Of a stretch of 64,000 nt of DNA, positions 3,007 to 38,868 are shown in pieces. Below the pieces are notes generated by a model. The model had not been told where the DNA came from. It made no database searches and saw only the letters and a list, made by a program, of their open reading frames with translations. The stretch is from Thermoanaerobaculia bacterium (GTDB taxonomy: Bacteria; Acidobacteriota; Thermoanaerobaculia; Multivoradales; Multivoraceae), in assembly GCA_963664405.1 (NCBI GenBank), contig OY761158.1, positions 5,504,001 through 5,568,000 on the forward strand, given 5' to 3'. Within the stretch, counting starts at the first letter, position 1; the number at the start of each line of letters is the position of its first letter. A program made the position numbers and the translations under genes.

Positions 3007-3172
3007 CTGGACCAGCGTTTCCAAAGTTCGCGCACATATCTCGGCCCCTTCTGTCCGCTGGCGGCGTTTCGCCTCCTCGACATATTGCCCAATATGCCTG
3101 CGTCGGCGCGCCTGGCCAGCGAACAGAATGAGCTCGAGCTATGCAGCACGAACTTTGGAAACGCTGATCTAG
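3007..3172. mobile_element. MITE-like palindromic element, family A copy 1 (166 bp including both CTAG-type ends)
   Basis: CTGGACCAGCGTTTCCAAAGTTCG...CGAACTTTGGAAACGCTGATCTAG; 8 mismatches to the reverse complement of 27561-27726; right CTAG supplies the TAG stop of the 3169..3675 gene. Confidence 0.85.
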
Positions 3173-24591: not shown

Positions 24592-27500
24592 TCATTGCTG
24601 CGGTCTCGGTTCGAGCAAGCTCTCGATGGTGTAGAGCTTGCCTCCCTTGATCGTGGCGCGGACTCGCATCGCATCGCTGACCCGGGCGAGAGGATCTCCA
24701 TCGACCAGGATCAGGTCCGCGACTTTGCCGACTTCGATGCTTCCTAGGTCCGAGTCGACCCCGACCGCTTCCGCTGCCCACAGAGTCGCTGCTCGGAGAG
24801 CCTGCCAAGGCTCGAGGCCGGCGGCCTCGAGAAGCTGTATCTCGACGTGAAGACCGAAGCCGTAGGGCACGAAGGGCGAGTCGGTGCCTGCGGTTACCCT
24901 GCCGCCCCGTTCTACGATCGCCTTGACTGTTTCTCCCATGGACCGACAGCGCGCGATCAGCGACGGCCCGCCGGGTCCGAGGCTCGGGGGGAGACTCGCC
25001 GAGCCTCCCGACTCTGAGTAGAAAGCCCGATACTGGCGGTTCTCGAAGATCTCGCGATTCTGCGAGGTGTGGACGAAGTAGCAGGGGAGAACCAGGGTCG
25101 GGGTCAGGTTCATTCCCGAGCTGGCCAGGAGGTCGACGACATCTCCGTAACTGCGGCCAAGGGCGGTGATCTTGGGCGAATAGCCCCGTCTGCTGGTGCC
25201 TCCCAGGTGCTCTACCGCATCGACACCGTAGGAGACTGCCGGGTAGATTTCGTGGGAAGAGATCGGAATGCCAAGCTCGTGGGCGAGGGCTGCCACCCTC
25301 TTTTGATCCAGGTCGGGCAGTCGGACGTAGGTCTTGACCAGGTCGTACTCGAGCCTCTGGGCCCGCTCGAGGGCGTAGGCGAGATGAGCGAGGGAGTCGG
25401 TGCCTTCAGTAGTGGTGTAGTAGACGCGATTGCCATCGAGATGGTACCCGGTAACGAAAGCCCGGGGCCCGGTTCGTCGCCCGCTCGCCCAGGCCTCTCG
25501 GCGCTCGGTGGCGTCGTAAGCATCGCCTCCAGGCTCCCGTACCGATGTAATGCCGAAGGCGAGCCAGATGCGGCCCCCCCGCTCCCCCGAGGAAGCGTTC
25601 TGGTGAGCGTGCATTTCGAACAGTCCAGGCATCGTAACTTGGTCGCTGGCGTCGATCGTGCCGGCGTCGTGGAGGTCGCTTCGGTGGGCCTCGATCGCGG
25701 CGATACGACCGCCCTCGATGATGATGTCGACGTTCTCTCGATAGTCCGGATTGAAGCCGTCGAAGAGGCGGCCGGCATGAATGACGCGCCTTCCGAGGCT
25801 TCTCTCGGGTCGCCAAGTGAGTGCGATGGGGAGGCCTTCGCTCCAGCCTTTGGACAGTTCGAGTCGGCGCAGGCGGCCGGCACTGAGATAGACAAGGGTC
25901 GAGGCGTCGCCGCTCCAGCTCGGCCAGTCGACAGGGTCCTCAGTGACCCGTCGAAGCTCCTCTGGGAGGCCCGAGTCCGGGTCGATCTGCGCAACGTAGA
26001 GCGACCCGTCCGCAACTACCGCCAGCTTGCTCCCGCCCGGGGAGAAGACAGCCTTGGAAAGCGAGTGATCGAGTCCGAGATCCAGGGTCCTCCCGCCGGC
26101 CTCGACAGTGTCGATGAGAAGAACTCGATAGTGCCCTTCGCGAAAGCGGGAGGATTTTGGTACCAGAGCGGTCACCGCAAGGGTATGGTCTCCTCTTGCC
26201 CATGAGATCTCGGTCGGAGAGATCCCGTGCCAGGGGACGGTTCGCGCTTCGCCCGAAGCGAGGTCGAGAACCTTGAGCCTGACGCCGGTCGAGCCACGCG
26301 GATCACCGCCGAAGAAGGCGACTCTGTCGCCCTCGGGAGAGATCGATGGAAGGGTGGCACCGCCCGGTTGGTGGGAGATCATGCGAGCCTCGGCACGGCC
26401 AAAGTCCCAAAGCCACAGGTCCAATACCCCACCCCCGCCACGATCGCTGAGGAACAGGAGGCGCTCCCCGTCCGGGAACCAGCGGGGGTGGATCTCGACA
26501 AAGTGGTCTTCGGTGATGCGAGTTACGGCACCATCGTCCTCCCGCACCCAGAGATCCCCGACGGCGACGAAGGCCACTCGTCTGCCGTCAGGAGAGGGGG
26601 AGGGGTGGAGGATGCCGCGAACCGATCGCGGCTCGCGGGTGTCGAAATCGCGTCTTCGCCTGGGGTAAAAGGGGCGGCTGAGGCTGACCTCGGCGCGAAA
26701 CGGTTGAACGGTCCGCTCGTCGTTGCCGATGCGAGCCTTCTTGATCACTCCGTCGGCGGTGTAAAAGTAGTCCTGGGCCGAGCTCCAAGATGCGCGAAAA
26801 GGGAAGACGTCTTCGCCGGGGAGGCTGAGGCGGTCGGTCTCTCCCGACACGAAGTCAACGGAGAGAAGCTCGCTGACGCCTTCACGTGAGTGAAGTAGCT
26901 GAAGGCTCACTCGGGATCCGGACTTATCCCACGCCGGCGCTGCGGCGACGCCTCGGGTCTGGTGAAGTAGGCGAGGCCGGTTGGTGCCGTCGAGACCTTC
27001 GAGGAGGTATAGGCCCGGAGGCTCTCGTGCCGAGACGAAGGCGATGTGCTCGCCGTCGGGGGAGATGGCTGGGCTGTGGTCGTTGGCGGAGTCGGAGGTG
27101 ATGCGATTCAGGTCCCCGGATTGCAGGTCGACTGCCCATAGGTCGTAATTGCCGCTTCGATCCGAAGAGAAGACGATGAAAGCCCCGTCAGGGGTAAAGA
27201 AAGGTTCGCGATCGTCGTCGTGGCCGGAGGTGATCTGGCGCAGGCCGGTCCCATCTCGCTCGACTGTCCAAATGTGCCAGTTGCCGTCTCGGTAAGACTG
27301 AAACGCCAGCGCGCGCCCGTCCGGCGACCAAGCGGGTTGGCGGTCGTCTCCGAGACCGTCGGTCAGAGCGACGCCGCCACCACTGGGAATCGAGACCCGC
27401 CACAGAGTCCCCTGCAGGTCGATAACGATCTCTTCGCCGTTGGGTGAGACTGCGGCGGCGAGGTTCGTACCCTCGGTCAACTCCACCGCAATGTGCTGGG

Positions 27501-27735
27501 CGAGGGTAGCGGCGCAGAACAGGATTGGCGCCATCGCGGCGAGACCTGCTGCAAGTCGCACTAGACCAGCGTTTCCAAAGTTCGTGTTGCATAGCTCGAG
27601 GTCATTCTGTTCGCTGGCCAGGCGCGGCGACGCAGGCATATTGGGCAATATGTCGAGGAGGCGAAACGACGCCAGCGGGCAGAAGGGGCCGAGATGTGTG
27701 CGCGAACTTTGGAAACGCTGGTCTAGGTTCCTCAT
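24592..27735 (-). CDS. Exported amidohydrolase with TolB-like (PD40) beta-propellers; 54-aa element-derived insert in the signal peptide
   Basis: Repeated P.WSPDG motifs; MPGLFEMHAH, VKTYVR, TAGTDSP, LGSIEVGKVADLILVDGDPL. Confidence 0.88.
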   Translation of the reverse strand: MRNLDQRFQSSRTHLGPFCPLASFRLLDILPNMPASPRLASEQNDLELCNTNFGNAGLVRLAAGLAAMAPILFCAATLAQHIAVELTEGTNLAAAVSPNGEEIVIDLQGTLWRVSIPSGGGVALTDGLGDDRQPAWSPDGRALAFQSYRDGNWHIWTVERDGTGLRQITSGHDDDREPFFTPDGAFIVFSSDRSGNYDLWAVDLQSGDLNRITSDSANDHSPAISPDGEHIAFVSAREPPGLYLLEGLDGTNRPRLLHQTRGVAAAPAWDKSGSRVSLQLLHSREGVSELLSVDFVSGETDRLSLPGEDVFPFRASWSSAQDYFYTADGVIKKARIGNDERTVQPFRAEVSLSRPFYPRRRRDFDTREPRSVRGILHPSPSPDGRRVAFVAVGDLWVREDDGAVTRITEDHFVEIHPRWFPDGERLLFLSDRGGGGVLDLWLWDFGRAEARMISHQPGGATLPSISPEGDRVAFFGGDPRGSTGVRLKVLDLASGEARTVPWHGISPTEISWARGDHTLAVTALVPKSSRFREGHYRVLLIDTVEAGGRTLDLGLDHSLSKAVFSPGGSKLAVVADGSLYVAQIDPDSGLPEELRRVTEDPVDWPSWSGDASTLVYLSAGRLRRLELSKGWSEGLPIALTWRPERSLGRRVIHAGRLFDGFNPDYRENVDIIIEGGRIAAIEAHRSDLHDAGTIDASDQVTMPGLFEMHAHQNASSGERGGRIWLAFGITSVREPGGDAYDATERREAWASGRRTGPRAFVTGYHLDGNRVYYTTTEGTDSLAHLAYALERAQRLEYDLVKTYVRLPDLDQKRVAALAHELGIPISSHEIYPAVSYGVDAVEHLGGTSRRGYSPKITALGRSYGDVVDLLASSGMNLTPTLVLPCYFVHTSQNREIFENRQYRAFYSESGGSASLPPSLGPGGPSLIARCRSMGETVKAIVERGGRVTAGTDSPFVPYGFGLHVEIQLLEAAGLEPWQALRAATLWAAEAVGVDSDLGSIEVGKVADLILVDGDPLARVSDAMRVRATIKGGKLYTIESLLEPRPQQ
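27561..27726. mobile_element. MITE-like palindromic element, family A copy 2 (in-frame intragenic)
   Basis: Perfect 24-bp inverted ends CTAGACCAGCGTTTCCAAAGTTCG; removing it plus one CTAG (162 bp) restores MRNLVRLAAGLAAMAPILFCAATLAQ. Confidence 0.9.
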
Positions 27736-27850
27736 CTTTGCTCAAGTGTAGCGCCACGCCGTGGCTGCGCTCCGGAGGAGCGTGTGGCAAGATCGTTCAG
27801 GACGGCACAACGGCATACGCGCGGCGGTGTCAAAGAGGAGGTCAGGACGG

Positions 27851-28291
27851 ATGCGATATCTACACACCATGATTCGGGTTACCGATGTGGACGCTTCGCT
27901 GGATTTTTATTGTGGCAAGTTGGGGATGACAGAAGTGCGCAGACATGAGAGTGAGGCTGGACGGTTTACGCTCATTTTCTTGGCCGCGTCGAAGGACGCC
28001 AGCGCCGGGAGGGAGCGCGGGGCACCAACTCTCGAGCTGACCTATAACTGGGACCCTGAGCCCTATGCGGGCGGACGTAACTTCGGCCACCTTGCTTTCG
28101 AGGTCGACGACATCTATGCTTTCTGCGAGCGGCTTCAAGAGGGTGGGGTGACGATCAACCGTCCGCCGCGCGACGGTCGCATGGCTTTCGTACGCTCCCC
28201 CGACAACATCTCGGTCGAGCTGCTTCAGGCCGGCGATGCACTTCCGACGCAAGAGCCCTGGGCTTCGATGCCCAGCGTCGGAGAGTGGTAG
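27851..28291 (+). CDS. gloA: Lactoylglutathione lyase (glyoxalase I)
   Basis: [42 protein letters not shown]. Confidence 0.88.
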
Positions 28292-28305
28292 AGCGCGGTC
28301 CTCGG

Positions 28306-29144
28306 CTACATCTTGGCGATGACCTCGTCGGCGAAGCGCCTGAGTCCGTCGGGGGCCATCGGGGGCACGGTTACGCGGGAGACTCCGAGATCGGCCATCC
28401 GGCGCAGATGCTCAGAGGGGCCGCCTCCGGTGGTGATCTCGAGAGCATCAGGGTCTCGTCCCGCGTCGCTGGCCGCAGCTTTCGCTACCCGGATGAGCTC
28501 GGCCAGCTCCAGCGCCGATCCTTTGACCGGAAAAAAGCCGTCGCCCAGCTCGCCCGCTCGCCGTGCCGCCCTCTTAGTGTGGCCGCCGATGACGATGGGC
28601 ACCAGCCCCTGAGCCGGGCGCGGGCGCGAGTAGACATTCTCGAAAGAGACGAACTCTCCTCGGTAGGTCGAGCAGTCGTCGCCCCATAGGGCTCGCAGCG
28701 CTCGAATGTGATCGTCGGTTCTCGCGCCACGTCGCTCGAAGGGCACGCCGAGGGCCTCGAACCATCTTTCAGCCAGCCCACGCCGACGCCGAGGGTCACT
28801 CTTCCTGCCGACAGTTTGTCGAGTGTCGCCACTGCCTTGGCGGTGACGACGGCATTGCGTTGAGGCAAGATGAGGATGCCGGTAGCGAGACGGATCTTCT
28901 TGGTGACGGCGGCAACGTAGGACAGCCAGATCAGAGGGTCAGGGATGTCGAAGTCTTCCTGCCCGCCCGGCATCTTTCCGCTGGCGTCATAGGGGTAGGT
29001 CGAGGTGTATCCACTCGGGACCACGACGTGCTCCACCGTCCACAGAGATTCGAATCCGCATTCCTCGGCGGTGGTGGCGAGGGCGATGGCGTTGGCTCCT
29101 TCGACGAAAGGGCCGGTGTTGGCGAACATGATGCCGAACTTCAA
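28306..29144 (-). pseudogene. LLM class (F420-dependent type) oxidoreductase with a single frameshift near 28763
   Basis: N-half GFESLWTVEHVV...GVGVGWLK and C-half FEALGVPFERRGARTDD lie in different frames; GAT GG TTC fits GAT GAG TTC missing one base. Confidence 0.75.
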
Positions 29145-37523: not shown

Positions 37524-38615
37524 ATGTCTATTTCTAGCGTGTTGACTCTGCAAGAGATCGTGCGAGTCGCGCGGGAGAATCTGGCTCAGAAAGAGTGGGA
37601 CTATCTTGTCGGCGGCGCCGAAACCGAAACGACGCTGCGGCGTAACCGATTGGCGATTGATTCGCTCGCTTTGCGCCAGCGGGTACTCCGAGATGTATCG
37701 GAGGTGAGAACCCGCGTCCGTCTGCTCGGCCACGAGCTGCGCATTCCGGTGTTCCTACCGCCGATCGGCTCGATCCAGGTCTTCGAAGCGGGTGGAGGAG
37801 CCTCGGTAGCTCGCGCCGCCGAGACCTTCGGTTCGATGCAGTTTCTGAGCTCGGCCTGCTTACCGGATCTTGAAGAGGTGGCTGAGGCGTCGACAGCGCC
37901 CAAGGTGTATCAGCTCTATCTGCAGGGTGACCCAGCCTGGATGGAGGAGCAGATTGAGAGAGCGGTTGCGGCGGGCTATGCCGCCTTTTGCCTGACCGCC
38001 GATACCCAGGTCTACAGCCGTCGCGAGCGCGACTTGCTCAAGCGCTTCATTCCCGGTTCCGGGAGCCAGTCCTCGGCGCCGGGCGATTTTGTTTGGCAGT
38101 CACGCATGAGCTGGGACCTGGTCAAGCGGATCAAAGACCGCTTCGACATTCCGTTGGTAGTGAAAGGCATCGCGACTGCCGAAGACGCCGGTCTCGCTTG
38201 CGAGCACGGCGTCGACGTGATCTATGTCTCCAACCACGGTGGCCGACAGCTGGATCAGGGGCAGGGAACCCTCGAAGTCCTGCCAGAGGTGATTGCGGAG
38301 GTCCGTGGCCGCGCGCCGGTCCTAATCGACGGTGGTTTCTCGCGCGGCACCGATGTGGTCAAGGCGATCGCCCTCGGTGCTACAGCGGTCGGGGTAGGTA
38401 GGCTCCAGTGCTTCGGCATGGCCGCCGGCGGTGCGGAGGGCGTGGTGCGGGCCCTGGAGATTCTCGAGCACGAGATTCAGATCTGTCTCGCGCTCTCCGG
38501 CGTTGCCGGAATCGAGGACTTGGACAAGAGTCTTGTATGCCAGGGGAAGCCCGTTGCGGACCCCCACGTGCTCAGCGCCTTCCCCCTTCTCGAGCTCCCC
38601 AGATGGCGGTACTAG
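37524..38615 (+). CDS. FMN-dependent alpha-hydroxy acid oxidase/dehydrogenase
   Basis: DYLVGGA, VVKGI, VSNHGGRQLD, IDGG, DVVKAIALGA; GGAGG RBS. Confidence 0.9.
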   Translation: MSISSVLTLQEIVRVARENLAQKEWDYLVGGAETETTLRRNRLAIDSLALRQRVLRDVSEVRTRVRLLGHELRIPVFLPPIGSIQVFEAGGGASVARAAETFGSMQFLSSACLPDLEEVAEASTAPKVYQLYLQGDPAWMEEQIERAVAAGYAAFCLTADTQVYSRRERDLLKRFIPGSGSQSSAPGDFVWQSRMSWDLVKRIKDRFDIPLVVKGIATAEDAGLACEHGVDVIYVSNHGGRQLDQGQGTLEVLPEVIAEVRGRAPVLIDGGFSRGTDVVKAIALGATAVGVGRLQCFGMAAGGAEGVVRALEILEHEIQICLALSGVAGIEDLDKSLVCQGKPVADPHVLSAFPLLELPRWRY

Positions 38616-38868
38616 ACCAGCGTTTCCGAAGTTCGAGTCGCATAGCTCGAGCTCATTCTGTTCGCTGGCTAGGAGCCTGCGAAGCAGGCGAGTAGTTCTC
38701 AGGCGGGGATGGGCCGGAGAACGGGCCGTAGGTCCGTTCTCCGGGGCGAGGCGCGCCGACGCAGGCATATTGGGAATCTGTCGAGGAGGGCGGGGGCGCC
38801 TAGCCAACGCTGCCAGCGGGCAGAAGGGGCCGAGATAGGTGGCGCGAACTTTGGAAACGCTGGTCTAG
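38612..38868. mobile_element. MITE-like palindromic element, family A copy 3 (257-bp long variant)
   Basis: Same CTAG-ACCAGCGTTTCC(A/G)AAGTTCG ends and core, plus an extra internal arm; left CTAG supplies the upstream TAG stop. Confidence 0.85.

Follow-up and report, generated by a model that had tools for sequence, protein, structure and literature searches.

A palindromic element of the IS630 type inserted in frame in a signal peptide of a Thermoanaerobaculia bacterium, and where copies of its family survive

[quoted passage not shown] As described there, RPEs are palindromes of about 150 bp that are inserted in frame in unrelated genes with the open reading frame (ORF) unbroken, and inserts inside metabolic genes are among those described. 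Enterobacterial small mobile sequences of the RU/ERIC type are MITE-like repeats with open frames that are found fused to annotated ORFs (Delihas, 2007; PMC2759123). The present work concerns a 166-bp element at positions 27561–27726 of a 64,000-nt stretch of DNA from a Thermoanaerobaculia bacterium of the phylum Acidobacteriota (assembly GCA_963664405.1, contig OY761158.1, positions 5,504,001–5,568,000); this whole stretch is termed the window. The element is a non-autonomous transposon of the IS630/Tc1-mariner type, i.e. a MITE, and it represents a new IS630-derived family, here called family A, which works like the RPEs. It is situated in the signal peptide of a gene encoding PD40 repeats and an amidohydrolase domain. 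What appears to be new, judging from sequence comparisons, is that survival inside genes is concentrated in signal peptides that would be cleaved and on stop codons.

Family A resembles the RPEs in that it is palindromic, lies in frame, would add a peptide segment without breaking the ORF and is found in several unrelated genes. It differs from them in that the coding inserts are almost all in signal peptides predicted to be cleaved, in that 103 of 228 related copies lie on stop codons, and in that a cognate transposase of the IS630 family can be identified. A preliminary description of the locus, made from its sequence, had pointed to the RPEs as precedent. That likeness stands for the way of working only and not for membership, as the host phylum is different and no sequence relation is expected. 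With respect to the RU/ERIC-type sequences (PMC2759123), these are single annotated examples where the hydrophobic part is supplied by the repeat itself, whereas in family A an existing signal peptide is split between its n-region and h-region, this occurs at about 19 loci, and there is a measurable bias in frame and length. In the open-access literature searched on in-frame MITEs, signal-peptide MITEs and MITEs of Acidobacteria, neither family A nor a systematic signal-peptide bias was found described.

The element and the gene that carries it have the following features:

27561–27726, strand not assigned: family-A MITE copy, a nearly complete palindrome of 166 bp, from CTAG to CTAG
27561–27584, plus strand: left terminal inverted repeat including CTAG, 24 nt
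27703–27726, plus strand: right terminal inverted repeat including CTAG, 24 nt
24592–27735, minus strand: host gene, 1047 amino acids if the insert is counted; an amidohydrolase domain preceded by beta-propeller repeats of the PD40 (TolB-like) type
27727–27735, minus strand: codons 1–3 (ATG AGG AAC), n-region of the ancestral signal peptide, placed by the sequence, by orthologue starts and by an empty-site contig
27496–27564, minus strand: rest of the signal peptide, LVRLAAGLAAMAPILFCAATLAQ, whose first codon, CTA, is the terminal CTA of the element

The two 24-nt arms are 100% complementary, are 118 nt apart and form the single inverted repeat found, with CTAG at both ends of the element. On the minus strand the order is ATG AGG AAC, then the CTAG-to-CTAG block, then TG CGA CTT. 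Net of the shared CTAG, 162 bp (54 codons) are inserted, with no stop in the host frame, so that the addition of 54 codons in frame within a signal peptide, as first proposed, is borne out. The element peptide makes up residues 4–58 of the 1047-amino-acid ORF. It had also been stated that two frames of the opposite strand are open, and indeed the plus-strand ORFs 27440–27751 and 27525–27872 both span the whole element; the fourth usable frame is closed, with the minus-strand ORF 27602–27790 terminating inside. The 24-mer, with up to three mismatches allowed, occurs six times in the window, in three elements, vs no occurrence in 100 shuffled sequences. The terminal repeat in the window is not due to chance.

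The host protein matches Pfam PD40 (2.6e-39), Amidohydro_3 (3.3e-14) and Amidohydro_1 (3.8e-14). The element splits the signal peptide after residue 3. If the insert is ignored, the residues that flank it (MRN before, LVRLAAG... after) join to form a signal peptide of 33 residues, and the hydrophobic window of this peptide scores 2.31 on the Kyte-Doolittle scale. A TACACT hexamer, which the preliminary description took for a −10 box, is found 9 nt upstream of the host ATG; a scan of 27450–27900 for consensus promoters and terminators found no promoter-like site and nothing else.

Direct evidence for the insertion comes from public contigs of sequencing runs, which were compared with window positions 26800–28400. 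A 6514-nt contig of run X9 matches 26800–27564 with 26 differences and 27732–28400 with 14 differences, i.e. it is about 97% identical on both flanks. Between the two matches it skips 167 bases and has two other letters. This contig is without the element and keeps a single CTAG, and it joins the region of codons 1–3 to the remainder of the signal peptide. As read from the table of matches, its gene starts ATG-AAG-CTA-GTG, one codon shorter than in the source genome. Contigs of run X8 have the element, with both junctions bridged and flanks that differ by about 2%. The X9 and X8 contigs are taken as solid evidence for an empty and an occupied site, respectively. A contig of run X13 skips exactly 162 bases, but only 25 letters are present on its shorter side and it is weaker evidence; contigs of run X4 are identical to the window and extend only 26 nt into the element. 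In addition, orthologues in three related genera (G008, G009 and G005; 42–56% identity) start at the equivalent ATG and have signal peptides of 30–35 residues. The insertion is thus real, precise and polymorphic among close relatives. The early proposals that the repeat is mobile and that its removal restores a normal signal peptide are upheld by the X9 contig, the latter also by the orthologue N-termini, and the alignment of orthologues suggested at that time as a check on the empty site gave the expected starts.

Copies of the element are abundant in the source genome, which consists of one contig of 6.78 Mb with 62.6% G+C. A blastn search with the element yields 245 non-overlapping loci, 129 of them full length at 86–100% identity. 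A scan for the terminal repeat (up to four mismatches) gives 139 pairs that are 100–400 bp apart; most of these paired copies are 164–167 bp in length, with variants of 177–180, 244 and 256–257 bp. When a scan blind to internal sequence was made for any element whose termini are complementary and whose ends are [CT]TA[GA], 215 candidates were obtained, and these together with the 139 pairs amount to 228 non-overlapping elements. Family A accounts for 138 of them, including the copy at 27561–27726. The other 90 belong to at least six sister families with other terminal repeats, mostly of the form CTAGTG...CACTAG, which have a central core in common with family A. Only family A combines a net length that is a multiple of three with three open frames; the other families have none to two open frames and are mostly 167–168 bp. 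The 165-bp and 167-bp classes of family A (21 and 12 copies) share one indel each, which indicates that they are transposing sublineages and not decayed copies. The exact 24-mer is also present in other metagenome-assembled genomes (MAGs) of Acidobacteriota, in copies of 166 and 179 bp. Properties characteristic of MITEs are therefore all found here: terminal inverted repeats, a length of 166 bp with no transposase gene, many dispersed copies and an empty site in a relative. Five metagenome contigs about 98% identical to the genome have family-A copies at sites that are empty here, and the family has therefore been mobile recently. None of these five complete new insertions is at a signal peptide, and they are too few to replicate the signal-peptide bias described below.

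The core is of interest in itself. At window positions 27596–27694 (compared at loci L044–L048), the central 50–100 nt or so are 77–88% conserved across sister families that have unrelated terminal repeats, and the conservation extends to other genera and, within the order, to one other family. Of 30 related genomes from other genera, 10 have the core without the family-A ends, within similar CTAG-ended hairpin elements of about 166 bp. It is more conserved than the ends, which are what a transposase should bind; part of it is in poorly paired internal loops, and it contains a GAGGAGG motif.

An insertion sequence (IS) that may be regarded as a parent was found outside the source genome. At locus L058, positions 1501–2784, an IS of about 1284 bp has at one end a sequence identical to the family-A 24-mer and at the other a related imperfect repeat. 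Between its ends it encodes a transposase of 392 amino acids, with Pfam matches to DDE_3 (6e-21), HTH_32 (4e-11) and HTH_29 (1.2e-7), i.e. of the IS630/Tc1-mariner type. Family A is therefore like IS630/Tc1-mariner elements in having a terminal repeat identical to that of an IS with a DDE_3 and helix-turn-helix transposase and, going by the papers cited below, probably in its target, the TA within CTAG. It departs from this group in that no cognate autonomous copy was found in the genome and in that its sister MITEs share the core and differ in terminal repeats. The L058 element, like those at L055, L057 and L059, comes from a MAG labelled Alphaproteobacteria (four loci, 60–63% G+C). Horizontal transfer, mis-binning or a loss of the parent might each account for its presence there and not in the source genome.

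Within the source genome, a scan for pairs of terminal repeats found no autonomous copy with family-A ends, and pairs that are 400–5000 bp apart represent neighbouring MITE copies or copies interrupted by other elements. Several candidate parents were rejected. The only two DDE_3 ORFs of the genome are distant, being 28% identical to the L058 transposase, and a simple scan found no matching ends around them. CTAG-flanked ISs that have DDE_Tnp_1/DUF772 transposases have unrelated terminal repeats. Such unrelated full-size CTAG-flanked ISs (DDE_Tnp_1/DUF772 or DDE_Tnp_1_4) are found at 378432–379993 (eight copies), 2985134–2986867 and 836248–838070 of the genome. The same 2.5-kb insert splits two family-A copies, at 6272417–6275122 and 6758844–6761549, and does so at an identical position in both; they are in opposite orientation and about 490 kb apart. 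As judged by eye, the ORFs of these 2706-bp copies are tyrosine-recombinase-like and IS91-type. These are insertions into a MITE and not its parent.

It had been proposed that CTAG is duplicated on insertion. The single CTAG at the X9 empty site agrees with this, but a palindromic CTAG target is compatible with duplication of TA as well as of all four bases. Nearly all family-A copies are flanked by CTAG, and where ends depart from it, 11 cases have a change in the outer base and none has one in the inner G or C. This pattern makes TA within the CTAG target more likely to be the duplicated unit than CTAG as a whole, in which case the element itself would end in G...C. The choice is in line with what is known of the group: the titles of two papers (Tenzen and Ohtsubo 1990/1991, cited in PMC2170065) give TA of CTAG as the target of IS630, and in PMC2170065 itself ISY100 is described as duplicating TA. 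It may be added that at three sites a family-A copy lies against the terminal CTAG of another MITE family, and the 12-nt flank is identical in all three (right flanks at 4281877, 1460964 and 4614883); targets are thus formed anew at element ends, and these attract nested insertions.

The locus in the window is one of a group. When N-termini were rebuilt by removal of the elements, many family-A copies proved to have a short basic n-region on one side and a hydrophobic core on the other, and several of these copies are in precursors with a lipobox cysteine. For counting, a site was considered signal-peptide-like if the 26 residues after it include a 10-residue window that is free of D, E, K and R and has a mean Kyte-Doolittle value of 1.9 or more; the threshold was fixed once and was not tuned. 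The proportions of signal-peptide-like sites near gene starts are as follows:

Family-A copies: 19 of 27
Copies of other families: 1 of 8 (1 of 90 among all their copies)
Unoccupied CTAG sites: 178 of 892
Unoccupied CTAG sites with the preferred flanking base: 68 of 265

Family A differs from all unoccupied near-start sites (p=4e-8) and from those with the preferred flanking base (p=6e-6). The net length is a multiple of three in 18 of the 19 signal-peptide copies vs 58 of the 119 other family-A copies (p=1e-4), and in 26 of the 31 copies that have a coding context of any kind vs 50 of 107 on stop codons or in intergenic regions (p=2e-4); several of these tests of frame and of signal peptides share the same data. 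Copies that are both in frame and stop-free are 17 of the 19 in signal peptides vs three of eight others near starts (p=0.011). The 165-bp and 167-bp sublineages had equal opportunity, and the sole signal-peptide copy whose length is not a multiple of three, of 167 bp, lies just outside the coding sequence. Orientation among the 19 copies is 13:6, which matches the 2:1 ratio of open frames, two one way and one the other. Paralogues of two further hosts, one a sulfatase-like lipoprotein and the other from a paralogue family of 51 copies, have homologous n-regions upstream of the insertion point, which places these insertion sites inside ancestral signal peptides. A coding-tolerant family had been postulated, and this is supported, given a net length that is a multiple of three, three open frames of the four that are usable and the excess of stop-free in-frame copies.

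Site occupancy in the genome as a whole gives a broader picture. All 228 elements were excised in silico, and genes were then called by ORF with codon-usage log-odds, which gave 5747 genes and 87.8% coding sequence. Two other ways of classifying sites were dropped: a cut-off on G+C at third codon positions missed the locus at 27561–27726, and just 55% of random positions were recognized when coding was tested with two windows. CTAG is under-represented three-fold in the genome, with 7502 sites vs about 23,200 expected. The distribution of all 228 copies over these sites is:

Last 15 codons of a gene: 106 occupied, 998 unoccupied, occupancy 9.6%
Intergenic: 79 occupied, 1887 unoccupied, occupancy 4.0%
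5′ extension of a gene call: 18 occupied, 326 unoccupied, occupancy 5.2%
First 30 codons: 17 occupied, 566 unoccupied, occupancy 2.9%
Mid-gene: 8 occupied, 3245 unoccupied, occupancy 0.25%

In 103 of the 106 cases at gene ends (103 of the 228 elements), the gene stops at the very TAG of the target, and the element then follows just after an intact gene. About 12% of the C-TAG stops of the genome are occupied in this manner (103 occupied vs 764 unoccupied). The mid-gene family-A copies that are in frame include one in a polytopic membrane protein and one in a PIN-domain protein (2808100–2808265 and 1662917–1663082), and in another assembly an in-frame family-A insert is found in P0001, an FAD-dependent monooxygenase, between its domains. 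The preliminary description had foreseen inserts in unrelated proteins, and the monooxygenase is such a case. It had also suggested that the family can remodel proteins; with most surviving coding inserts in a signal peptide that would be cleaved, mature proteins would mostly not be remodelled.

Copies on stop codons are strong hairpins directly 3′ of genes, and their orientation is unbiased (28 vs 31). A likeness to REP/BIME repeats can be seen in this, as many family copies are hairpins in such a position. REP/BIME sequences are mobilized by a RAYT transposase. Family A is not of that group: the element is 166 bp long with 24-nt terminal repeats, CTAG ends and a parent of IS630 type (DDE), while REPs are sequences of 20–40 bp that have GTAG or CGTC tags, according to PMC3733652.

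How the host gene can function with the insert may be pictured as follows. A MITE would have inserted at the TA of the CTAG that spans codons 4–5 (CTA-G), where the charged n-region meets the hydrophobic core. As the main form of the family adds 162 bases and is free of stops in three of the four frames that CTAG allows, the frame of the original ATG would be left open. Ribosomes would read through the element and produce a precursor whose n-region is longer by 54 residues, 57 in all. On export the extension would be removed together with the signal peptide, the mature enzyme would be unchanged, and the insertion would be tolerated rather than useful. A probability of roughly 60% is assigned to this reading. 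Translation through the element, continued export and near-neutrality are the most likely circumstances given the sequence data, and the family-wide frame bias makes a good case that ribosomes starting at the old ATG matter, with read-through as its simplest explanation. Inserts of this kind are present in about 19 genes of the genome, which suggests a tolerance for them in cleavable export signals. A wider proposition is more tentative and is put at somewhat less than even odds: that family A, as one lineage within an ancient IS630-type MITE superfamily, is a form able to persist inside genes, and that some 19 precursors of secreted proteins and lipoproteins carry an element-encoded n-region extension of 54–84 residues that would be removed on export, so that signal peptides might be safe harbours for the family.

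Several points weigh against translation from the old ATG or against the generality of the bias. Both strands of the element are predicted to fold strongly (plus strand −101.4 kcal/mol, z −12.0; minus or mRNA strand −75.1 kcal/mol, z −8.9). The mRNA hairpin is predicted to start 9 nt after the host AUG, and a structure of −75 kcal/mol should hinder initiation there. Two alternative starts could serve, the GTG that immediately follows the element or the ATG ten codons later; either would give a usable signal peptide, and the codon-score gene caller picked the downstream ATG. The 1047-amino-acid form is absent from the five public proteins (from 15 candidates) that contain the 55-amino-acid element peptide, a set too small for statistics. 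The gene caller is home-made, and the signal-peptide rule is a hydrophobicity heuristic and not SignalP. As to age, the signal-peptide copies are slightly younger than the others (median of 6 vs 8 substitutions from the consensus), and within the main stratum of 5–9 substitutions the bias towards multiples of three is weaker (12 of 13 vs 39 of 68, p=0.025). Two signal-peptide copies, at 1277111–1277276 and 1641948–1642113, have identical flanks; a segment with host gene and element was therefore duplicated after insertion, and two of the 19 loci are one event. Finally, the copy at 27561–27726 is polymorphic among close strains, which leaves little time for selection to have acted on it.

The first four of these observations could be taken together to mean that the functional start is downstream, at the GTG or the ATG, and that the element is a structured 5′ leader, with the long ORF from the old ATG incidental or similar to an upstream ORF. 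With initiation at the GTG, the signal peptide would be short and normal, and an arginine would precede its hydrophobic core. We consider this unlikely. If the elements were mere leaders, length and frame would be irrelevant; yet all but one of the 19 signal-peptide copies keep the frame, and stop-free in-frame copies are far more common among them than at other near-start positions. Also, on inspection by eye, neither the GTG nor the ATG has a Shine-Dalgarno-like sequence within usable range upstream.

Alternatively, the insertion could be recent and mildly harmful, the hairpin and the 54 added residues reducing expression or export, in an allele that is young or a gene that is dispensable. 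The coexistence of occupied and empty alleles in closely related populations, the recent mobility seen in the contigs about 98% identical to the genome, and the presence of many PD40 paralogues (45 matches in the genome) would fit such a situation. On the other hand, the downstream 990 codons of the host gene are intact with a strong coding score, the element is also present in the X8 strain, whose flanks have diverged by about 2%, and some 18 other secretory genes have equivalent inserts. A harmful insertion is therefore judged even less probable than a downstream start. That the element is an adaptive regulatory device, the hairpin or n-region extension tuning translation or secretion of a set of exported proteins, is very improbable: the higher occupancy of signal-peptide-like N-terminal CTAG sites than of intergenic ones (20 of 198 vs 79 of 1966, p=5e-4), the conserved core of about 50–100 nt across subfamilies and genera with differing terminal repeats, and the stronger folding in one orientation in 102 of 102 copies speak for it, but a filter for open frames would by itself account for the proportions in which the two orientations and the three open frames are all used, copies at stop codons show no orientation bias, and there is no match to an Rfam family.

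The Rfam search with the element gave no match at the gathering score; the sole match was MIR1858, at 21.9 bits vs a cut-off of 137 (E=0.25). With respect to folding, one strand forms the stronger structure in all 102 family-A copies of 164–167 bp (102 of the 138), with means of −108 vs −87 kcal/mol. The difference arises because G-U pairs on one strand are C-A mismatches on the other. The mRNA of the host gene contains the weaker-folding strand.

Other features of the window are the following:

3007–3172, strand not assigned: second family-A copy, 166 bp, on the TAG stop of a called gene (distance to stop 0)
38612–38868, strand not assigned: third family-A copy, a 257-bp variant, on a TAG stop codon
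27851–28291, plus strand: glyoxalase-family gene, divergently transcribed (Pfam Glyoxalase, 1e-22)

The spacer between the divergent host and glyoxalase-family genes is 115 bp (27736–27850), and both promoters must fit there.

The reasons why some in-frame MITE insertions survive inside genes are poorly understood, and in-frame MITEs are known mainly from Rickettsia. The distribution of family A points to a rule: insertions survive where the added residues would be discarded, as in signal peptides, or are never translated, as on a stop codon. The family also provides a natural experiment, in that sister lineages differ only in length class (a multiple of three or not), have the same CTAG target, and occupied and empty alleles coexist. 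A practical consequence is that gene callers will misplace the starts of genes that have such inserts. If the wider proposition on the 19 or so precursors is true, in-frame mobile DNA would have a general sink in signal peptides, and secretion could acquire a shared control point in the hairpin or the n-region extension.

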